Source: a virus
Lineage: Duplodnaviria; Caudoviricetes
Virus record (IMG/VR): IMGVR_UViG_3300032332_001882
Span: 1-45,317 of that record
Length of the DNA stretch: 45,317 nt
Strand: one strand, 5' to 3'
Made by a program: the position numbers and the translations under genes. Shown here in pieces: positions 253 through 40,224 of the stretch (the stretch's first letter is position 1; the number at the start of each line of letters is the position of its first letter). A model generated the notes under the pieces. It made no database searches and was not told where the DNA came from. It saw only the letters and a list, made by a program, of their open reading frames with translations.

Positions 253-1584
253 ATGAAGGTTCCCATTTTCCACAGATCAGAATACAAATATCAGCTATTA
301 CCGTCTTTGAATAAACATGAATATGAAGTTTTATTCAATTCAATAAAAGAACATGGAATAATACATCCAGTTGAAGTTGATGAAGATGGAAACATACTAG
401 ATGGTCATCATAGATATTCTATAGCAATGGAACTGGGCATAGAATGTCCAACCATAGTTAGAGAAAATATGACAGAAGATGAAAAACATTCCTATGCTCG
501 ATCAATGAATGTAGCTAGACGACATTTAAATTCAAAACAGAAACGTGCAATTATTGCTGATGCACTTACCGAAAATCCTGGTAGGTCAAATAATTCTATC
601 GCTAAAGAATTAGGTGTTTCAGATACAACAGTTGGTAGTGTAAGAAAAGAATTAAATCTTGATTCTAAAGTTAGAATTGGTGATGACGGAAAATCATACA
701 CAGTTGATGATTCGGATCTAAAAGTATCTAGATATGTTTATGATCAGATATTAAACAAAAAGTCCACTGGTGAAGTTCTGAAAGCAAAACTAGATACAAG
801 TATAGATATTATCTATTGTTCATCTATAAATGATCAACTTAAACATCCCGCACATGATGCTGGATGGAAAATGGGATTTCAGACTGATGCGGTCTATAAA
901 AAAGAAAATTCAATGTATGAAGAAATATTCATTGATATTGATTTCAAAAATTATAGATTTGATTATCATCTTGAAAATGTTAAGACATTTAGACCAAAAT
1001 ACTGTACTGTTATAGATATAATGACTGAAGATGAGACGGCTGGATATACAACTAAGTTTCACACATTTGATGAAGTGATGGAACAGGCTGAGCAGTTAAA
1101 TGAATATGCAGAAAATGTAATAATTATTCCAAAATATGATTGTATAAAAGATATACCAGATAATTATATTTTAGGATATAGTTGCCCATCAAGCTATGGC
1201 ATGACTTCAGTTGATTATAAAAAATTTAAAGGTAGAAAAGTTCATCTACTGGGTGGCCCATGGGGTGTTCAAAGAAGATATCTTCAAATGATGGGGGAAG
1301 ATGTTGTATCTCTTGACAATAATTCCATGAATAGAATTGCTGCGGTTGGGAGTTTCTATACAACTGATGGTATCAGAACTTCATTCTACAATTTAAATTA
1401 TGAATTCAGTGATGGTTTTGAAAATAGATCTACCGATATTGGAATCATGGCAGAGAATGTTAGGTTTATCTGTGCATCAATTTCATTCGGAAATATTATA
1501 TATGATATTGCCAGAATGAATGGTTACGAAAATCCGGATAGAGAAATACAGAAAAATTATTTTAGAAGTTTAAATAAACACTAA
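253..1584 (+). CDS. ParB/Srx N-terminal domain + HTH fused to a DUF6610/DpdA-like (guanine transglycosylase-like) domain
   Basis: N-terminal SIKEHGIIHPVEVDEDGNILDGHHR is a ParB-like signature, followed by an HTH (SNNSIAKELGVSDTTV). The C-terminal half has FIDIDFK, IIIPKY, LGYSCPSSYG, KVHLLGG and VVSLDNNS, resembling the HxLG...SxD motifs of DpdA/TGT-like barrels. Adjacent to queF and yhhQ. ATG 253 preferred over the upstream TTG 151. Confidence 0.65.
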   Translation: MKVPIFHRSEYKYQLLPSLNKHEYEVLFNSIKEHGIIHPVEVDEDGNILDGHHRYSIAMELGIECPTIVRENMTEDEKHSYARSMNVARRHLNSKQKRAIIADALTENPGRSNNSIAKELGVSDTTVGSVRKELNLDSKVRIGDDGKSYTVDDSDLKVSRYVYDQILNKKSTGEVLKAKLDTSIDIIYCSSINDQLKHPAHDAGWKMGFQTDAVYKKENSMYEEIFIDIDFKNYRFDYHLENVKTFRPKYCTVIDIMTEDETAGYTTKFHTFDEVMEQAEQLNEYAENVIIIPKYDCIKDIPDNYILGYSCPSSYGMTSVDYKKFKGRKVHLLGGPWGVQRRYLQMMGEDVVSLDNNSMNRIAAVGSFYTTDGIRTSFYNLNYEFSDGFENRSTDIGIMAENVRFICASISFGNIIYDIARMNGYENPDREIQKNYFRSLNKH

Positions 1585-1973
1585 TCTTTAAATAATACAG
1601 TAGACTTTGCTGAAGTCGCAATTCCACCACGCGGTTGCTGGGTGACCGTCACTGTTGCATTACATCTGGCATCAATAGAAATTCTTGTAGCAATCTCTAT
1701 TGCCATATCTTCGCAAAAGATTCCTCTATTTCTAAAATTCCACAAAAATAATTTTAAAGATTTGCTTTCTATAATTCCAGTATCACTTGGTTTATATAAT
1801 ATTTCTACTTTAGAAAGATCTGGTTGATTTGTTACTGGACAAAGGGACGTGACTTCATTTGTCACAAATGTTATTTCATCTATTTTTGTATGGTCTGAAA
1901 TTGGAACTATTTCAAGCTTTTCAATCGGCTCTTTAACTATAGAACCTAAAACTCCATCATGCATCATTGACAT
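1581..1973 (-). CDS. queF: NADPH-dependent preQ0 reductase QueF (short type I)
   Basis: EVTSLCPVTNQPD (catalytic Cys/Asp), QueF motif ESKSLKLF, C-terminal PRGGI. The true start may be ATG 1967 or 1964. Confidence 0.92.
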   Translation of the reverse strand: MSMMHDGVLGSIVKEPIEKLEIVPISDHTKIDEITFVTNEVTSLCPVTNQPDLSKVEILYKPSDTGIIESKSLKLFLWNFRNRGIFCEDMAIEIATRISIDARCNATVTVTQQPRGGIATSAKSTVLFKD

Positions 1974-2616
1974 CTTGTGACCAATCCCGATCTGGTGTAG
2001 TATAAATTAATGGGATACTAATGAATGTTACTATGCACTTAAAGATAATATTTGTTAAGAAAATTCCCCAAACGATGTTCCAGTCCAGTCCTTCTGATCC
2101 AAGAAATGTGAATGGAGCAAAAGCGATTAGTGTAAAAGCTAAACTATCTAGCGGTACTGATATCGCATTTGAAACAACAACCCTGGCCCACTGGAATCTT
2201 GAAGTGATCTTTGTCACAAACCAATGGTACACTTCAGTATCGGCCATTTCAGATATGACCTGAGCGACTATAGAAGCTAAAACAATTCTGGATACTGGTC
2301 CTAAGACCATAGAGAATTCTTCATTCAATGGCCACGACGGGTCTGCTGGAAATCTAGTCGTAAACCATAAATATGCAACCATGGCAACATTTAGAGAGGC
2401 TGCAACCACGATAAGTATTCTTACATGTGATTTGCCTAAAATCTTATGAGCTACATCTCTTATCGTAAATGTTAGTGGATATAAAAATGTCCCCATGTCA
2501 ATAGCAAAAGCACCAATCATGCCAATTTTAATACTAGCAATATTTGACACTAACTGTAGTGCAGTATACGTTGCGACAACTATTGTTGTTGCTGTTGGAC
2601 GAACTTTTGTAAGCAT
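1957..2616 (-). CDS. yhhQ: Queuosine precursor (preQ0/preQ1) transporter, YhhQ/VUT family
   Basis: Multi-TM protein with SNIASIK, GTFLYPLTFTIRD, RIVLASIVAQVISEMAD and RVVVSNAISVPLDSLAF. GAGGA RBS precedes ATG 2616 (track start 2688). Confidence 0.9.
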   Translation of the reverse strand: MLTKVRPTATTIVVATYTALQLVSNIASIKIGMIGAFAIDMGTFLYPLTFTIRDVAHKILGKSHVRILIVVAASLNVAMVAYLWFTTRFPADPSWPLNEEFSMVLGPVSRIVLASIVAQVISEMADTEVYHWFVTKITSRFQWARVVVSNAISVPLDSLAFTLIAFAPFTFLGSEGLDWNIVWGIFLTNIIFKCIVTFISIPLIYTTPDRDWSQDVNDA

Positions 2617-2725: not shown

Positions 2726-3634
2726 ATGAAATCTTTGAGTCTTTTTACTGGAATTGGTGGTTTCGATCTTGGTTTCGAAACTGCTGGCATTGAGACTCTA
2801 TCAATGTGTGAGGCCGATGGGCGAGCACAATCCGTCCTGAGAAGACACTGGCCACATGTTCCAGTGTTTGACGATGTAAGGAATATTAATGGATCCGACT
2901 TTAGAGCAATTGACATTATTCACGGAGGATTCCCATGCCAAGACATCAGCATGGCAGGAAAACGAGAAGGTCTTGAAGGGGATCGATCAGGGCTCTGGTG
3001 GGAATTTCATCGAATCATTTCTGAAGCAAAGCCAAGGTTCGTCGTCATCGAAAATGTCGCCGGCCTCCTGTCTTCAGGAGGAAGACGGGACTTGGGTGCC
3101 ATCATCGGGTCGCTGGGCAAACTCGGGTATATGGGGGGATATAGAGTGTTGGACGCTCGGTATTTCGGAGTGGCCCAAAGACGTAGAAGGGTGTTCATTG
3201 TCGCAAGTCTTGGAACCGACTGTGGACAAAAAATACTTTTTGAGCCAGAAAGCCTGCCAGGGGATATTGAAAAGAGCGGACAAGCGTTCGAAGAAGTTGC
3301 CGGAACTATTAGATCAAGCTTTAAAAATTCAGGATATAAAACAACAGAATTAGATGGTCACGGAACCCATGTAGTTGTTGGCTCTAAAGAGATTTTCGCA
3401 ACACCATTGGGCAGAGATCCTATAAATATCCCATTCGGTGAAAATCAGCAGCTTGGTGTGAGAAGGCTTACGCCAGTTGAGTGTGAAAGGTTAATGGGGT
3501 TTCCAGATAACTGGACACTGTTGGATGAAAAAGATAAAACCATTCCAGATACGCAAAGATACAAAATGTGCGGAAATGCTGTTGTTGTGAATGTGTCCGA
3601 ATGGCTGGGTAAAAGAATCGCCTCAGTTCACTGA
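2726..3634 (+). CDS. dcm: DNA (cytosine-5) methyltransferase
   Basis: Motif I LFTGIGG, IV GGFPCQDIS, VI ENV, VIII QRRRRVF, IX RRLTPVECERLMGFP, X GNAV. Confidence 0.95.
   Translation: MKSLSLFTGIGGFDLGFETAGIETLSMCEADGRAQSVLRRHWPHVPVFDDVRNINGSDFRAIDIIHGGFPCQDISMAGKREGLEGDRSGLWWEFHRIISEAKPRFVVIENVAGLLSSGGRRDLGAIIGSLGKLGYMGGYRVLDARYFGVAQRRRRVFIVASLGTDCGQKILFEPESLPGDIEKSGQAFEEVAGTIRSSFKNSGYKTTELDGHGTHVVVGSKEIFATPLGRDPINIPFGENQQLGVRRLTPVECERLMGFPDNWTLLDEKDKTIPDTQRYKMCGNAVVVNVSEWLGKRIASVH
2889..3353 (+). CDS. Overprinted 154-aa ORF inside the C5-MTase gene (resembles the alternative-frame beta polypeptide arrangement of M.EcoHK31I)
   Basis: ATG-initiated 465-nt ORF in the +1 frame, entirely within dcm. 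Protein-like C-terminus SLSQVLE..KYFLSQKACQGILKRADKRSKKLPELL; N-terminal QLTLF. Confidence 0.7.
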   Translation: MDPTLEQLTLFTEDSHAKTSAWQENEKVLKGIDQGSGGNFIESFLKQSQGSSSSKMSPASCLQEEDGTWVPSSGRWANSGIWGDIECWTLGISEWPKDVEGCSLSQVLEPTVDKKYFLSQKACQGILKRADKRSKKLPELLDQALKIQDIKQQN

Positions 3635-4191
3635 TTTGCTTCAAAGAATGCTTGAGCAAAACCAAGTGGGGTCATAGACCTAAATTCTTTAGTTGCTTCA
3701 CTTTTACCACCAACTTTATAAATAAGTCTACCTCCAGTAGGCTCTACTTCATTTCTATCTGGAATATTAAACTTACCCCATAGCCAAGTTGTCTTCTGGT
3801 ACGGATCCCCATGATGATATGGATGAAACTTATATTTTATTGATCCAAGTTCTGGAACCAGTTTATGTATCCTGCTCATTGGATTCTCAACAACCCAAAA
3901 TGTTGGATCATAAAAATTGATAATTTCCATCATCTTCTTCACAAGGGCGACAGATTTTTCAGTTGTTCCATCCGCATCTTTTCTTTTGAAGAATCTTGAT
4001 CCAGATAGAGAAAAGTCGGTACATGGTGGGGCCGCAAGAATGCCATAAACATTTCCCATGCTTGAATAGTCAAAGTCAAAAATATCTGACCCCAGCTTAA
4101 TGTCAACTTGGTGAACCGAATATCCAGCATTTCTATAGGGATCTGACCATCTCCCAGAGAAATCAAATAGCGATAAAATCGTTTTATTCAT
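3628..4191 (-). CDS. Short phage C5-cytosine methyltransferase-like protein
   Basis: Variant motif I ILSLFDFSG, catalytic AAPPCTDFS, VVENP, C-terminal RSMTPLGFA. No obvious target-recognition domain. Confidence 0.75.
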   Translation of the reverse strand: MNKTILSLFDFSGRWSDPYRNAGYSVHQVDIKLGSDIFDFDYSSMGNVYGILAAPPCTDFSLSGSRFFKRKDADGTTEKSVALVKKMMEIINFYDPTFWVVENPMSRIHKLVPELGSIKYKFHPYHHGDPYQKTTWLWGKFNIPDRNEVEPTGGRLIYKVGGKSEATKEFRSMTPLGFAQAFFEANQ

Positions 4192-4253
4192 TAAATAATT
4201 ATATGTATTTATTTGCAATTTTTATCTTATTTGAACATATCCGTTATGTCGAT

Positions 4254-5810: not shown

Positions 5811-5846
5811 TTAGACTTTCCTAGTCTTTAATTGTTTTTCTATGGG

Positions 5847-5919
5847 CTCTCAGGGTAGGACTCGAACCTACAACCCGCTGATTAACAGTCAGCTGCTCTG
5901 CCAATTGAGCTACCTGAGA
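5847..5919 (-). tRNA. tRNA-Asn (GTT)
   Basis: Reverse complement TCTCAGG TAGCTCAATTGGCAGAGC A GCTGA CTGTTAA TCAGC GGGTT GTAGG TTCGAGT CCTAC CCTGAGA G forms a full cloverleaf. Confidence 0.95.
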
Positions 5920-5925
5920 AAAACT

Positions 5926-6249: not shown

Positions 6250-6264
6250 TGAGATTCCTTTCAG

Positions 6265-6345
6265 TGGGAGAGGAGGGATTCGAACCCCCAATGCCAATGG
6301 CCACAGATTTACAGTCTGCTGAGCAACCAGTTGCTCAACTCTCCC
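6265..6345 (-). tRNA. tRNA-Tyr (GTA)
   Basis: Reverse complement GGGAGAG TT GAGC AACTGGTT GCTC A GCAGA CTGTAAA TCTGT, long variable arm, GGGG TTCGAAT CCCT, CTCTCCC A. Confidence 0.93.
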
Positions 6346-20661: not shown

Positions 20662-21365
20662 TGAATATAATTATTGGATGTCCATTCTCTGATAGAACTT
20701 GGATTTTGGATAGATGGTTAGAACATATTTATACATCATTTGATAAAGCTGGAATTATTCCTAGTTTTATTTTTGTCGTTGGAAGCGGAAATCCAAACGA
20801 TATTGATGCATTATCTAAAATAGATAAGTCTACAATCAGAGTCGTATCTGAGCCAGAGAGAGAAGATCTCAGAAAGTGGAATCATGGCAGATATGAACAT
20901 ATGGCATTTCTTAGAAACGAACTTCTCTCTCTAGTAAGAGAGAAAAAACCAGATCTTTTTTTGAGCCTAGATTCAGACATTCTTCTAGCTCCAGACGCGG
21001 TTGATTCAGCTATCAATGCCTTAGATCTCCATACAGATGCTTGGGCTGTTGGAATGAAATGTTACATGAGTCAAACATCAACAGTTCATCCAAGTATGGG
21101 AATTTGGTCTGACATTAACAGAATAAGATATCGAAGAGTTGATGGCGATGATATTGCCAGTGTTGATATTATTATGGCTGCAAAATTAATGAAGCCTGAA
21201 GCTTACAATATTGATTATGTTTTTCATCGTAATGGAGAAGATTTAGGATGGTGTTCTGAGATTAAATCAGCTGGTGGAAAGCTAATATGGGATGGTCGCG
21301 TTACTAATAAGCATGTAATGGGACCAAACTTTCTTGAAGCAATTGATAAGAGGGCTGGATTTTGA
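20661..21365 (+). CDS. Glycosyltransferase (GT-A fold, GT2-like)
   Basis: IIIGCP, LRN, DxD motif LSLDSDIL, GEDLGW. Confidence 0.85.
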   Translation: MNIIIGCPFSDRTWILDRWLEHIYTSFDKAGIIPSFIFVVGSGNPNDIDALSKIDKSTIRVVSEPEREDLRKWNHGRYEHMAFLRNELLSLVREKKPDLFLSLDSDILLAPDAVDSAINALDLHTDAWAVGMKCYMSQTSTVHPSMGIWSDINRIRYRRVDGDDIASVDIIMAAKLMKPEAYNIDYVFHRNGEDLGWCSEIKSAGGKLIWDGRVTNKHVMGPNFLEAIDKRAGF

Positions 21366-22147
21366 ATATTGAATTAGTTGTAATTAATTACAGAACGTAT
21401 CCGGAGTTGCAAAGATTTATTGATTCATATATCAAATTTCAGCCAAATACTGAATCGCATTTAACTATTATTGATGTTGATTCTTTGGATGAATTTGATT
21501 CAATCTCAATTCCTGATGAGATGCAGGAAAAGATTAGCGTAGTTAGAACTGACTGGAATCTTGGCTATGCCCTTTCCTGCAACTATGGAGCATATACATC
21601 AGATTCTGATATTATTGCATTCTTTAATGCTGATACGGAATTTGTTGACAGTGAATGCGTTGATTATTGCGTAAACTTCCTAGACGAGCATGATCAGGTT
21701 GCTATTGTCGGTCCAATGCAATACGATTCCAGTGGCCTATGTACTCATGGTGGAATCTTTGGAACACTTGATAATCCGGTGCATAATGGATGGAAATCCA
21801 ATGATTTAGATAGAATGATTTTCAATAAGAAAGCCGTAACAGTTTCTGGATCAGCCTTCTTCATGAAAAGATCGGTTTGGTCCGAACTCACAAACTGTGA
21901 GATTTATAGATCACTTCATCCAGATGTTGTTGGGGCATTCTTGCCGACTCCTCACTATTTTGAAGAAACTGGATGCGCTTATCACGCTCAGTCTCACGGT
22001 TATGAGGTCTGGTATCTTGGCGAAGCCAGAATGATTCATCAGTGGCATAAATCATCCCCGGTTGGGTCAGCAGTCGATCAGAAATTTCATGAATCAAAAC
22101 AAATATTTGTAGAGTTTTGTGAAGCGCATGGAATAGATCATGACTAA
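21362..22147 (+). CDS. Glycosyltransferase family 2 (WbbL/rhamnosyltransferase-like)
   Basis: VVINYRT, NLGYALSCNYG, FFNADT, VSGSAFF, YFEET. Confidence 0.9.
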   Translation: MNIELVVINYRTYPELQRFIDSYIKFQPNTESHLTIIDVDSLDEFDSISIPDEMQEKISVVRTDWNLGYALSCNYGAYTSDSDIIAFFNADTEFVDSECVDYCVNFLDEHDQVAIVGPMQYDSSGLCTHGGIFGTLDNPVHNGWKSNDLDRMIFNKKAVTVSGSAFFMKRSVWSELTNCEIYRSLHPDVVGAFLPTPHYFEETGCAYHAQSHGYEVWYLGEARMIHQWHKSSPVGSAVDQKFHESKQIFVEFCEAHGIDHD

Positions 22148-22868
22148 ATTATGTGGAATATTAGTCATAAAAAATGAGGCTGATAGATATTTGAAATCTT
22201 GTCTAGAGTGGATGTCTCCATTATTTTCTGATTTATTTATATATGATGATATTTCTGATGATAATTCTGTTGAGATTGCAAAAGAATATGGAACGGTTGT
22301 TGTAAGAAACAAAAGCATTTCATCTTTCATTGACAATGAGTCAGAGTTCAGATTCTCTGCATGGAAATCATTTGAAGAAACCCTTTCGCCATCAGAAGGT
22401 GATTGGGTTCTTTCTTTTGATGCTGATGAATTTCTTGTTGGATCTGAAAATCTAAATCTAGCAATTGATACAGCAAAAAATGAAGGACATATTGGTGTCT
22501 CAATACCATTTCCAGAAATATTTGATATCATCGATGATATTCCATACATGAGAATAGATGGTCTTTGGAATAAGATTAGGGGACCAAGACTCTTTGAATA
22601 CAGATATAATGCAAATTGGAATAATAAAAAAATGGGCTGTGGATCAGAGCCTACATATGTATCAAATTCCAAAGTAAGTCGAAAAAATTTCGATATAAAT
22701 GTATTGCACTATGGCTACGCTAACAAAAAAGATAGAGACGCGAAATGGAATAGATATAGTAATCTTTCATTTCATGGCCATAATGATTCACATATTAAGT
22801 CAATTATAGAAACTCCAATATTAGAACCCTGGACTGGGGATATTCCTAAGGTTAAATATGGACAATAA
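22140..22868 (+). CDS. Glycosyltransferase family 2
   Basis: VIKNEADRYL, YDDISDDNS, WVLSFDADEF, LHYGY. Confidence 0.88.
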   Translation: MTKLCGILVIKNEADRYLKSCLEWMSPLFSDLFIYDDISDDNSVEIAKEYGTVVVRNKSISSFIDNESEFRFSAWKSFEETLSPSEGDWVLSFDADEFLVGSENLNLAIDTAKNEGHIGVSIPFPEIFDIIDDIPYMRIDGLWNKIRGPRLFEYRYNANWNNKKMGCGSEPTYVSNSKVSRKNFDINVLHYGYANKKDRDAKWNRYSNLSFHGHNDSHIKSIIETPILEPWTGDIPKVKYGQ

Positions 22869-23526
22869 AATTGCTGTAATTACAGCTGTCGCTGGTGACT
22901 ATGATCATCGCGGTAGCAGTATATATGATGATAATGTTGACTATATTTATTTTACTGATGGATTATCAACTCCAATTGATAAAAATAAATGGATCATAGA
23001 AAAACTTCCAGATCTTCCTCTTGATCCAAGACGTTTATCGAAATTTCCAAAACTACATCCACACTATTTTTCAATTCTTAGAAAATACGATTACGTTATC
23101 TGGGTTGATGGATCAATGCAGATCCGTTCACCGAATTTTGTTAATGAAATTCTCTCATACCTAGATAACGGACTTGTGATATCTCCACATTTTGATGGAC
23201 GTGATTGTGGGTATGGCGAAGCAACGATTAGACCACTTAAATATGTAAATGAACCATTAGATGAGCAGACGGATTTCTATTACTATCAAAATTTTCCTGA
23301 GCATTTTGGACTATATGAGGCCGGTGTCCAAGCAAGAAATATGAAAATTTCCGCCGTGTGTGATCTTGGAGAGTTTTGGCTGGGGCAGAATTTGATGTGG
23401 TCATATCAGGACCAGGTGAGCTTTGGGTACAGTTTATGGAAAACTGGATTCGTTCCTGATGTGCTTCCAAAATCATTTAGAGAATTCAGATGGGTGCACA
23501 TAAACGCACACAAGTCGGAGAAGTGA
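22858..23526 (+). CDS. DUF616 (TOD1/MUCI70-like) glycosyltransferase
   Basis: VITAVAGDYD, YIYFTD, KFPKLHPH, IWVDGS, QDQVSF. Confidence 0.85.
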   Translation: MDNKIAVITAVAGDYDHRGSSIYDDNVDYIYFTDGLSTPIDKNKWIIEKLPDLPLDPRRLSKFPKLHPHYFSILRKYDYVIWVDGSMQIRSPNFVNEILSYLDNGLVISPHFDGRDCGYGEATIRPLKYVNEPLDEQTDFYYYQNFPEHFGLYEAGVQARNMKISAVCDLGEFWLGQNLMWSYQDQVSFGYSLWKTGFVPDVLPKSFREFRWVHINAHKSEK

Positions 23527-23527
23527 T

Positions 23528-24058
23528 ATGGGTGAAAGAAAATCATTAGAAGAAAATGACTGGTATGGTCATCATTTCAGATATCGACTTGCCTCTGGTT
23601 TCGCAGATCGTGGTGATGTAGTCCTTGATGCCGCTTGTGGAATCGGTTATGGAAGTCAATTTTTTGACGGTCTTGATCGAACCTACTTTGGGGTAGATAA
23701 GTATGCTGATGAAGTTGTCTGCTTTCATGGAGAGGGAAGAACTTTCTTTCAAGAAGATCTAAATGTCTGGAAGCCGTCATTTGATTATGATGTATTTATT
23801 AGCTTTGAAACTATTGAGCATGTTCAGGATTATTCAAATATAATACAAATTGCTCATCAAGCTAAAAAGTGGATCATTACCTCAGTTCCGGTAATTCCAA
23901 CTAAGCACATTAATGAGTGGCATTTGCATGATTTTGAGCCTGGTGAGCTTCCTTCTTATATTATTAATGACGACTGGGAGATGTATCAACCAGTTGGTCA
24001 GCCACTAGAATTTTCGGAAATATACGTTTTTAAGAGAAAGAGTTATGATGGGAAATAA
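23528..24058 (+). CDS. Class I SAM-dependent methyltransferase
   Basis: HHFRY, VLDAACGIGYG, SFETIEHV. Confidence 0.9.
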   Translation: MGERKSLEENDWYGHHFRYRLASGFADRGDVVLDAACGIGYGSQFFDGLDRTYFGVDKYADEVVCFHGEGRTFFQEDLNVWKPSFDYDVFISFETIEHVQDYSNIIQIAHQAKKWIITSVPVIPTKHINEWHLHDFEPGELPSYIINDDWEMYQPVGQPLEFSEIYVFKRKSYDGK

Positions 24059-35265: not shown

Positions 35266-35627
35266 TGAATATTGATCCGATTAAATACACCTTAACTTGT
35301 TGGCAAGGTAAAACTTTTGAGAAAATCTTTTATTTCAAAGATGCTCAAGATAATATCATAGACTTAAGCGGCTATACAGCCCGTATGCACGTTCGTCCAT
35401 CTGTGGATTCCGACACGATCACGATTGAGTTAACAACGGAAAATGATCGTATCGTGGTCAATGGTGAAGATGGTTCAGTAACTCTCTACATCGCTGATGA
35501 AGATTCTGAGGACGTTGCCGCAGCTACTTATAAATATGATTTAGAGATCATCTCTGGGAGCGGACGTGTTTATTGCCCAATTTACGGTTCTTTCAAGGTC
35601 AAAGCCGAGGTAACTAGAAGTGCCTAG
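35262..35627 (+). CDS. Virion beta-sandwich protein (fibre adaptor/BppU-like)
   Basis: [36 protein letters not shown]. Confidence 0.65.
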
Positions 35628-38600
35628 TTTTATTCAGGGTGATGACGATGAGGTCATCGTTTCGGAAAACTTAGAGGAAACTGTTCTTGTTACATCAAGT
35701 GACGAGGACTCAGTTCTGGTCGTCGTGGCGCAGCAGGGTCCAGAAGGTCCGCAGGGAACGACTGGTTGGACTGGTCCAACTGGCCCCATTGGGCCAACCG
35801 GACCGGCTGGTAACGCTGGATTGCCAGAGTTAACCGATGCCGGGGACATCCTTACCGTCTCTGAGGTTAATGCTGGATTGGTCGGCTATGCAGTTGATAA
35901 TTCTGGTCAGGAAATTATTGATATTTTAAGCATCAATACCAATCCCCCAAATCTTCCTCTTGAAAACTGGGCTGACCTTCCCGGTTTTTATGTTGACGGT
36001 CCTGCATGTGGCATGGCTGCTACTGATCCATTCCTTACTGGAGTTTTGTTCTTTAGCGAGTTACAGCCTGGACAGCTTGTTGTTGGTGCTGAGGTGACTA
36101 TCCAAAGCGGCGAATACACTGAACTATGGGCAGCCCTAGTTAATTATGATGGAGATAATCTTAGCGCTCCCTTAACTGGTAGTTCGGATTCTCCAATACC
36201 CAATTATTCTTGGTTGGAAAATAAGGCTATAGGTTATCGACCTACGGGCAACTCTGGAGAGACGGTTATTACTCTCTCTTTATCTGCTCCATTTGAGATA
36301 GTTAATGAATGGGATGTGGAAGTTGAAATTCTTGCCCACAACGCCATAGGTGGAGATACGGTAGTCATCACGCAGGTTCGTTGGCTATATATAGATAGCC
36401 TTGCTGCAACATGGGAAACTCCAACCCCTACGGTTGTAAAAGCGGCGGCAATTTTGCTTACCCCTTCGCTGAATCCACAAGTAGGTGATGAGATTTGGAC
36501 TCTTACCTATTCGCCTGGAGCAGAAGAAACTGATTGGACTGGTGGATGGGTTGCCGGTAACAATAGTTTCTCTAAGGTTACATCATACGAATACAGTGGA
36601 ATATGGGAAGCTGATCCCAATGATGTAGTTCTTCTTATGATCGATGAGGGATCAGGTGGTCAGCAAGACTATTGGCCTTCAACCTATGCTCGCTTTACGG
36701 GTACTGGATTTGACCCAATTACCCTACCCGGTGGTACGCTCGTTTCTCTATCATGTGGTGGTGCGGGATTTGGTATTCCATCTATTTTTGTTGGAGCTAA
36801 TACCTTGTCTCCAGTATTTGGTGGTACATGGCCCTTTGCTGATGCCGATTATTTTCAACCCCACGGTACAACTGCGTCAGAAGTTGTTACTCGTTATAAT
36901 TACACTGGTAATCTTGATAATACGAATAATCTACAACAAGCACTTGATGCAATTGATGCACTAAGTCTTTCCTCTGGAGCAACCGGCCCGCAGGGTGAAA
37001 CCGGACCAGTTGGTCAGACTGGACCTTCTGGTAACGACGGTTTAACAGGTCCAATTGGTGAAACGGGGCCAATCGGTGAGACTGGTCCCACTGGTCCCCA
37101 AGGTGAAACCGGGGCACAGGGCGAAACTGGCTCAACCGGACCCAAGGGTGAACTTGCTGGCCTATCTTGGACTTATCAAATAAATACATCCACTTCCGGT
37201 GATAGGGATCCCGGTAATGATCATGTGGGTTTCGTTACTTTACCATATTATAATGCAACCCAAATTGTTGTAGATGATAATCCTTATGCTATAAATACAA
37301 CTTTACACGAATTATTTTTAAACGTTCAAAGTGCCTACTTGACATTAACAAGCCAATCTAATTCATACATTTACGCAACTTGGAAAGTTACTTCATGTGT
37401 TGATGGTACTGTTGACAACGAAACAGTTGATGGAAGTTATGTAATATTTAATGTTGATGCAAGTAATATGGGATATGGTTCTTTTACCGATGGTGAACTA
37501 GTTACTTTATCTCTGTCTATTATTGGATCCCAAGGCGCAACTGGCGCAACTGGTCCAACTGGCGATGGTTTCTATTGGTCCGGTCCCTACAACCCAAGTA
37601 CCAGTTACGTTATCGGATCTGTTGTCAGTGGATCGGACGATAACCTTCACATCGCTACTAGCAGCGGCATTCTTGGAGATCCTGCCGCTGGCGCTAATGG
37701 TTGGAACCTATATCTGCCTAAGGGTGATATGGGCGAGACTGGGCCAACTGGGCCAATCGGTGAAACAGGACCAATGGGTGAAACTGGTCCTAGCGGAAAT
37801 GATGGTGCTACTGGTCCGACTGGATCTGGTTTTTATTGGTTAAATATATATGTTTCAGGTAATGGTTATGTTCCCGGCGCTGTAGTCAAAGGGTCAGATG
37901 ATAACCTTTATATTGCTACTGGTAGCGGTGAATTGGGCGACCCGGCTGCTGGCGCTGGAGGCTGGGATCTATATCTGCCAAAAGGTCAGCAGGGGTACAC
38001 CGGAGCGCAGGGTGACCCCGGTGGCGATGGCCCGCCCGGTGACCCCGGTCTAGACGGAGCAACTGGTCCTCAGGGTTCCACTGGACCCGCAGGCGCAGAT
38101 GCTCTTTGGAATTTTCTTGGAGCTTATAATGTTGGGGCTTCTTACGCTGTTGGTGATGTTGTCACCTATGGTGGATCAACTTGGTATCGAATTAATGCTA
38201 ACGGTGGGAATACTGGCGATACTCCCTCTGAAGGAATTTTTTGGACTGAGATTGCTGCAAAAGGTGATCAGGGTAGCAGTGGTCCTTCTGGAGACTTTGG
38301 CGCTACTGGCGCTACTGGCGCTACTGGCCCACAGGGCGCCACTGGTCCTAGTGGTCCTAGTGGTGCTGCGGGGGAAACTGGTCCTATCGGAATAACGGGA
38401 CTCTCTGGAGAGACTGGCGCAACCGGACCAGCTGGCTTTACCGGGGCAACAGGGCCGCAAGGTTCTACGGGAGTAACTGGTGCTACCGGGCCGCAAGGTG
38501 CTACTGGTGCAGCGAATAGTCAGAATGTTCATGATTCTGTTTATGTTACAACAACAACAGTTCTTCCTAACTCACCAACTTATACTGCTGGGACTATAGA

Positions 38601-40224
38601 TGCTAATGGTGGCTATGGTATTGGTGCTACTTTAACTTCCGCAACTAACTCTACTCTTACTGTTGATAGCACCGTTGTTCCAGTTAATTCTAGAGTTCTT
38701 GTAAAAGATCAGGCTGATCCTAAACGTAATGGTATTTATAAACTTACTACTGCTGGTGGTGCTGTTCCTTGGGTTCTTACTAGAGCAACTGATTATGATA
38801 ATCATGTTTCTGCTGATGTAAATAATGGCGATTATGTTCTTGCTATTAATGGTACTACTAATACTGGTACTACTTGGATGATGTCAGCTATTGGTTCTGG
38901 TACTGGTGGAAATATTGTTATTGGAACGGACAACATTACTTTTACAAGAGTAAGCGGTGTTGGACCACAGGGTGCTACTGGTGCTACTGGTGCTGGTGGA
39001 ACTATCGGCTACTACGGATCGTTCTACTCAACGGTCGATCAGGCGCTTGTTTCTACGACCGCTGGGCAGGCCGTCCGGTTCGACACCACGAACATCGCTA
39101 ATGGTGTTAGTATTGTATCGAATGGTACGGCGCTAACAAGGATTACATTTGATTATACTGGAACTTACCATCTTGGTTTTGCAGCTCAGTTGGTTGATGC
39201 TTCTAATGGCAATGTGGTTCACACGGTTTCATTCTGGTTAGTAAAGAATGGTGCTACGGCACTTGCAACGACGTTCGATACGACTGTTACAAGTGGTACA
39301 CCACAGTTAGCTAACTGGGAGTATCAGTTTACTGCCACTGCTGGCGATTATTACGAGATTTTCTGGAATGCTTCAGATATAGATGTACGTCTTGACTATA
39401 TTGGCACCCAGTCAAATCCTACTCGTCCTTCTGTTCCATCTGCGTTTATTGTTGTTAACCAAATTACTTACACACAGATTGGTCCTTCTGGGGCTACTGG
39501 TCCGCAGGGCGCTACGGGTGTTCAGGGAGCGACTGGTTCTGCTGGAACTAATGGAACGCAAGGATTTACAGGAGCAACTGGTCCTGCTGGCGCCACTGGA
39601 TCTATTGGGGCAACTGGTTCTCAAGGTGCTACCGGATCTCAGACCGTAACACCAGCAGTATACGCTCCATATACAACAAATGATTGGGTTCTATTAACAT
39701 CAAATCTAGGTACTGGAACTGGTACTGTAACAATTGGCGGAACCGCAGCTGCTTCAAATAACTCTGCTCGTTGTTATCCAATATTTATTGGACAAAATGC
39801 AAGTTTAATTGGTCTTGGAGTTGACGTTCAAGCGGTAAACACGGGCGCTTCTGCTGTTGTCAGACTTGGGATCTTCTCTGATTCTGCTGGTAGACCAGGA
39901 ACTCTAGTCAAAGATGCTGGAACTGGAACTTTAACATCTGGAGTGTCTTCAAGAGAGTTAACATTTACCTCTGTAGCATTAACTCCCGGCTGGTACTGGG
40001 TTGCTATTTCTACACAGTCTCTTGATACTGGTCAACCAAACCCCGGTTTTCGTGGAACGGCAGCATTGGCTGGTTCTCCAGTTGCTAGATCTGCGGTTCC
40101 CAGCAACTCTACTGCTCATGGTGCAGTTTATTCATTTACTGCTTCTGGAGCATTTGCATCAACTCCTACCGTGGCAGAAGTTAGCTCAGTTAATATTGTT
40201 CACATATGGGGGAAGTTCGCATGA
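35620..40224 (+). CDS. Collagen-like fibre protein with CBM5/12-like repeats and a C1q/BclA-like domain
   Basis: Multiple Gly-X-Y (GPT/GAT/GET) blocks between globular domains; [19 protein letters not shown] fibre domain; [29 protein letters not shown]. Confidence 0.9.
37561..37986 (+). repeat. Duplicated ~55-aa domain in the fibre (37561-37725 and 37822-37986)
   Basis: GFYW...VVxGSDDNLxIAT..[17 protein letters not shown] twice; a more diverged third copy at ~38092-38266. Confidence 0.85.

Follow-up and report, generated by a model that had tools for sequence, protein, structure and literature searches.

A ParB-fused DpdA4 gene beside queF and yhhQ in a phage contig: a predicted salvage-fed route of preQ1 into phage DNA

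A close described relative of the system considered here is HVTV1_69 of HVTV-1, which Cui et al. (2023; PMC10516641) matched by HHpred to both DUF6610 and TGT; they named the group DpdA4, and the accessible text of that paper describes it as a predicted DNA transglycosylase specific to archaeal viruses. According to the accessible part of PMC6884629, about 30% of the G in HVTV-1 DNA is dPreQ1, and the DNA of Rosebush carries dPreQ0. In the DpdA1 phages (Rosebush, CAjan and 9g), TIM-barrel enzymes of a separate subfamily insert preQ0 into DNA by base exchange. In Salmonella Montevideo (PMC10164549), DpdA, a three-aspartate TIM barrel, acts with DpdB, a separate ParB-like NTPase, in a host restriction-modification system that inserts preQ0/7-amido-7-deazaguanine (ADG). 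The subject of the present analysis is a three-gene module at positions 253 to 2616 of the IMG/VR virus record IMGVR_UViG_3300032332_001882 (45,317 nt; the whole of it is called the window), in which a DUF6610 gene fused to ParB lies beside queF and yhhQ. Salvage-fed insertion of preQ1 into the phage's own DNA is the probable role of this module, and resistance to host restriction enzymes is probably its purpose. The three genes were found where an earlier note on this DNA had placed them, and open reading frame (ORF), Pfam and NCBIfam analyses agreed with its domain assignments:

253..1584 (+), ParB-fused DpdA4 (DUF6610), a predicted DNA-guanine transglycosylase of 443 aa (Pfam, tblastn, structure models, fold searches)
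280..633 (+), ParB/Srx-like domain (residues 10-76) and helix-turn-helix (HTH, residues 98-127) of the same protein (Pfam, TIGR00180, Foldseek)
793..1527 (+), DUF6610 TIM barrel (residues 181-425) with invariant D228, D255, D355 and H331 (structure model, homologue alignment)
1581..1973 (-), unimodular QueF, a preQ0 reductase by its motifs, with CP..PD and ESKSLK (sequence motifs, Pfam, NCBIfam)
1957..2616 (-), YhhQ/QPTR (Vut_1), a predicted transporter of 7-deazaguanine precursors (Pfam, NCBIfam)

The protein length is counted from ATG 253, and the same N-terminus opens the sister protein at locus L003; residue numbers in the earlier note run from TTG 151 and are higher by 34. As shown by the Pfam search, the C-terminal half matched PF20314 (DUF6610) at residues 200-377 (E 2e-41, 142 bits against a cut-off of 27). 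The model of residues 181-425 (pLDDT 91.9, pTM 0.89) formed a (beta/alpha)8 barrel whose closest fold was that of TGT/DpdA, in line with the relationship that the earlier note had read from VHLLGG and VVSLDNNS; these motifs, and ESKSLK, are present in the window proteins. D228, D255, D355 and H331 were invariant in 108/108 and 71/71 aligned homologues. In a weak profile alignment, D355 (strand 8) and D255 (strand 4) aligned with invariant Asp residues of DpdA1, while D228, at the end of model strand 3, lay outside the stretch covered. The identity of a tRNA TGT was rejected on two grounds: the CxCxxC zinc motif was found in 0/71 and 1/108 DUF6610 homologues versus 9/10 TGTs, and the Pfam search gave no PF01702 (TGT) match in the window protein. 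The same zinc motif was found in none of 60 phage DpdA1 proteins. DpdA1 identity was rejected as well, given that the DpdA1 profiles A3 and A4, both of which find gp3 of Funsized and Knocker, gave no match. The protein is a DpdA4 member by sequence and most likely acts like DpdA.

The N-terminal part matched ParB_N at residues 10-76 (E 1.4e-4, below the curated cut-off), HTH_24 at residues 98-127 (E 1.2e-3) and TIGR00180 (E 1.8e-10), and it resembled Spo0J/Noc in the Foldseek search (E 3e-6). It carries DGHHR, versus DGQQR in DpdB. Judged from sequence and model, the window protein is comparable to DpdA and DpdB of Salmonella Montevideo; however, its ParB part is fused rather than separate, DUF6610 lacks the zinc site of bacterial DpdA, and it belongs to a phage module.

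The queF gene is convergent with the 253-1584 gene, and their stops overlap by 4 nt. Its product matched Pfam QueF (E 1e-12) and NCBIfam QueF-II (TIGR03139; E 1.2e-21, 76.7 bits, below the cut-off of 86.9), and it contains both ESKSLK and CPVTNQPD, the latter with a Cys and an Asp which we take to be catalytic, so that it is of type I by motif. The QueF motif is E(S/L)K(S/A)hK, and phage QueFs use free preQ0 as substrate (accessible text of PMC10516641). YhhQ matched Vut_1 (E 1.3e-35, 123 bits against 27) and the queuosine-precursor transporter family TIGR00697 (82.6 bits against 50.95), and the YhhQ of locus L103 is 79% identical to it, with the start kept.

The family relationship was also apparent from direct comparison. 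The window barrel matched HVTV1_69, the founding member, by tblastn (31% over 170 aa, E 8e-20), phrog_23010 (E 1e-25) and, again by tblastn, gp1 of the Mycobacterium phages Funsized, Rinkes and Knocker (36-40% identical, E 1e-35 to 3e-33). As far as the accessible text goes, HVTV1_69 shares with the window protein the domain family, the link to QueF and the predicted insertion of preQ1 into DNA. There are also differences: neither HVTV1_69 nor HF2 is fused to ParB or belongs to the ParB clade described below, and the window has a bacterial host and a transporter in place of FolE, QueD, QueE and QueC. The stated host range of DpdA4 is therefore corrected beyond archaeal viruses: members were found among the bacterial-phage genes of the window, in mycobacteriophages and in Streptomyces loci, and the paper's own supplement (sheet DS1, as far as available) enters Knocker gp1 as DpdA4. 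The claim of the earlier note to assign a function to an uncharacterised family was too strong, because DUF6610 had already been named DpdA4 in 2023. Cui et al. was the only paper that a full-text search of the literature on DUF6610 and DpdA4 turned up; no DpdA4 row with YhhQ occurs in the available part of its supplement, and ParB and YhhQ are absent from the accessible main text. No description of a ParB-fused bacterial DpdA4 clade, or of a salvage-only form, was found in the openly readable literature and the part of that supplement consulted. DUF6610 also occurs in haloarchaeal genomes (the Haloferax volcanii control; L095-L097), including three copies in Saliphagus, with no que genes nearby.

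The neighbourhood survey drew on 180 loci, made up of the best 80 of 115 viral matches, 15 genome matches, the best 80 of 406 metagenome matches, four isolate records and the window. Because best matches were taken, this set is skewed to close relatives. The loci were collapsed into 103 groups at 75% identity, with contexts pooled within each group, and neighbour profiles were made from recurring ORFs, one representative of each being verified by Pfam, or, for FolE, by the HVTV-1 annotation. Three short domains were excluded from a quick tree, which comprised 100 groups; in it the window, on a long branch, fell in a clade of 68 rows with a support of 98 in the Shimodaira-Hasegawa-like approximate likelihood-ratio test. 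A ParB domain in the same frame was found in 48/53 clade groups with sufficient upstream DNA versus 0/32 outside; the clade consists of ParB-fused, mostly phage-type loci. A terminase lay near DpdA4 in 36 of 45 clade groups.

After 27 groups with less than 3 kb downstream had been dropped, a precursor-supply gene was found nearby in all 45 remaining clade groups, which bears out the link to que and yhhQ genes that the earlier note had proposed to look for. The complete set folE-queD-queE-queC was present in 19/45, with queF in all 19, and a transporter in 26/45. The latter comprised transporter-only groups without QueF (YhhQ-type or QueT; 20/45), transporter with queF (2/45, the window's group among them) and transporter with queF and queC (4/45). 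The description of the window module as minimal fails, because transporter-only versions are commoner (20 groups versus 2). On the tree, the transporter-only state required 14 changes, at least five of them forced by well-supported branches. The best argument for preQ1 as the substrate of DpdA4 comes from this clade comparison, since the nested series always retains the last steps to preQ1. Outside the clade, supply genes were found in 5/31 groups, including HVTV-1 and a frameshifted ParB-type gene unplaced in the tree; a Fisher P value for the supply pattern is overstated because the groups are related. Loci L035, L037, L044, L111 and L042/L087 have a transporter, QueF and QueC, with QueD, QueE and FolE absent, a partial pathway that suggests salvage of 7-carboxy-7-deazaguanine (CDG).

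The mycobacteriophages provide a comparison between culturable relatives. Rosebush has ParB, unfused beside dpdA, with DpdA1, QueC/D/E, FolE and the terminase. In Funsized, Rinkes and Knocker, a ParB 46-47% identical to that of Rosebush is extended by DUF6610 and followed by queF, as in the window, and then by the Rosebush-type set; unlike the window, these phages thus encode DpdA1 and a complete de novo pathway beside the terminase, and they lack a transporter. From the sequences, DUF6610 and QueF appear to have been gained jointly relative to Rosebush. This gain beside an existing DpdA1 would suit a TIM-barrel accessory, such as a reader or base-flipping partner through which QueF acts on preQ0 in DNA, as would the weak profile match between DUF6610 and TGT and the many standalone DUF6610 copies without supply genes. 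We regard such a role as very improbable, given that the transporter-only groups lack QueF, that the three aspartates are invariant, that phage QueFs use the free base, and that another DpdA is rare: among the 50 records searched, DpdA1 was found in Funsized and Knocker only and PF23859 in two, both outside the clade. DpdA1-like ORFs were also seen in the Streptomyces prophage-like loci L085 (8552-10659) and L086 (6893-9492), where two of them accompany ParB-DpdA4, together with an additional ParB and a full que pathway.

Relatives of the window differ at the same place. In L102/L103, ParB-DpdA4 (81%) and the convergent yhhQ (79%) are kept, with a different queF (49%) 1.7 kb away. In L104 and L105 the module is absent, and the same C5 methyltransferase adjoins a ParB-HTH 55-57% identical to that of the window; this is fused to an N6/N4 DNA methylase beside an Asp/Asn-hydroxylase-like gene in L104 (234-2682, -), and followed by Mom in L105 (1-1294, -). 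The slot is an exchangeable cassette for DNA modification, and this speaks for DNA as the target. Elsewhere, DUF6610 is joined to N6/N4 methyltransferases, C5 methyltransferases and GNATs. Such fusions (N6/N4 methyltransferase, GNAT with C5 methyltransferase, or GNAT) were seen in L060 (6941-8737), L061 (6509-8995), L062, L075 and L094, most of which lack que genes; the DUF6610 gene occurs twice in L060.

In the proposed mechanism, YhhQ would import preQ0 or preQ1, QueF would convert free preQ0 to preQ1 using NADPH, and the DpdA4 barrel would exchange guanine for preQ1 in replicated phage DNA. By comparison with D256, D95 and D130 of bacterial DpdA, the exchange would proceed by double displacement, D355 being the nucleophile, D228 the acid/base and D255 the residue that binds the base. 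The ParB-HTH part may play the role of DpdB in fused form, as a DNA loader that depends on NTP, and preQ1 in DNA would protect the phage genome from restriction. The sequence of import, QueF and base exchange proposed in the earlier note is thus well supported by the fold, the conserved aspartates and the neighbourhoods, while its mechanism remains predicted.

Several observations weigh against this salvage-fed insertion. The DpdA4 assays of Cui et al. in E. coli failed (accessible text of PMC10516641), and most DUF6610 genes outside the clade, which have no supply genes, may have another function. QPTR and QueT transporters differ in substrate, which is queuine for some (accessible text of PMC11130926); for the window YhhQ we infer preQ0 or preQ1. 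Moreover, the only two tRNAs of the contig, both at the minus strand and flanking a staphylococcal nuclease-like gene, are GUN tRNAs and hence substrates for queuosine:

5843-5920 and 6264-6345 (-), tRNA-Asn(GTT) and tRNA-Tyr(GTA) (tRNA scan)

Likewise, a different queF (49% identical) lies between tRNA-Asn and tRNA-Tyr in L003 (6885-7652). The module could accordingly serve tRNA, with YhhQ and QueF raising preQ1 and the host TGT or DUF6610 modifying GUN tRNAs, the phage's own included; a tRNA-Asp(GTC) upstream of DpdA4 in L017 fits this. We consider it unlikely, although a side benefit to tRNA may exist. The tRNA pair also occurs in L104/L105, where the module is absent; with the window's kin set aside, 1/54 other loci scanned had a tRNA gene; and the ParB-HTH, the terminase linkage, the exchanges with methyltransferases and Mom, and the dPreQ1 of HVTV-1 indicate DNA.

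The remaining points against it concern the incomplete record. The window record is linear and about 50% complete, and the missing DNA lies on the upstream side in all three close contigs. Profile searches of this half-complete contig found no QueC, QueD, QueE, FolE, TGT or DpdA1, as the earlier note had stated for the de novo genes and canonical dpdA; because half of the genome is missing, their absence from the whole phage is unproven. CAjan, like the window, has yhhQ, but beside the full pathway; it makes its own preQ0, and yhhQ is dispensable (accessible text of PMC7544227). DNA might therefore be modified with preQ0 made de novo, or by a second DpdA, coded in the unsequenced half, with YhhQ as a back-up; DpdA1 does accompany DpdA4 in two clade groups. 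This, too, has a low probability. A transporter together with QueD, QueE or FolE nearby was found in 0/45 clade groups, and neither QueC nor DpdA1 was found in the 67.5- and 79-kb sister contigs or in a module-less 145-kb relative. Complete transporter-only records also exist: G007 (49 kb, terminal repeats, 100% complete) and G029 (80 kb, 94% complete) encode DpdA4 alongside a transporter, and QueC, QueF and TGT were found in neither.

Beyond the window, ParB-fused DpdA4 is frequent in bacterial phages and likely depends in many cases on salvage alone, which suggests that many phages hypermodify DNA from scavenged precursors. More tentatively, and with a probability somewhat below even, ParB-fused DpdA4 could be an NTP-driven DNA transglycosylase for preQ1 that needs no partner, since it unites DpdA with a DpdB-like loader in a single polypeptide, and could define a widespread bacterial-phage clade. 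One transporter gene would then replace a five-gene synthesis, giving a two-gene scavenging hypermodification cassette interchangeable with DNA methyltransferases and Mom, and transporter-only members may insert queuine; no report of queuine in DNA was found in the literature examined. Genes now labelled 'ParB-like nuclease' or 'hypothetical' would be reannotated. The clade offers non-halophilic DpdA4 enzymes, the earlier trials having used salt-adapted ones of archaeal viruses, and the culturable M. smegmatis phages (Funsized, Rinkes and Knocker versus Rosebush) make DpdA4 testable.

Two C5 methyltransferase-like genes named in the earlier note were confirmed next to the module:

2726..3634 (+), full C5 cytosine methyltransferase, a neighbour outside the deazaguanine module (Pfam E 3e-65; kept in the module-less L104/L105)
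3628..4218 (-), short C5 methyltransferase-like neighbour (phrog_757, E 1.2e-5; 73% identical in L103, beside yhhQ)

Within the full gene, a 154-aa ORF in another frame (2889-3353, +) is 64-70% identical in L104/L105 and matches the methyltransferase families phrog_16143 and phrog_1008; the pair may be a dual-coded, two-chain methyltransferase of the M.EcoHK31I type. The host of the window phage is a bacterium, since its CHAP/peptidoglycan-binding lysin, Dp-1-type holin and sigma-70 (Pfam) are of the bacterial-phage kind; the matches of the lysin lean to actinobacterial phages and are too weak to fix the host phylum. Near the virion genes (21362-24058 and 35620-40224), Pfam searches revealed GT2/glycosyltransferase-like genes clustered with methyltransferase genes, as well as a collagen-repeat protein of 1534 aa.
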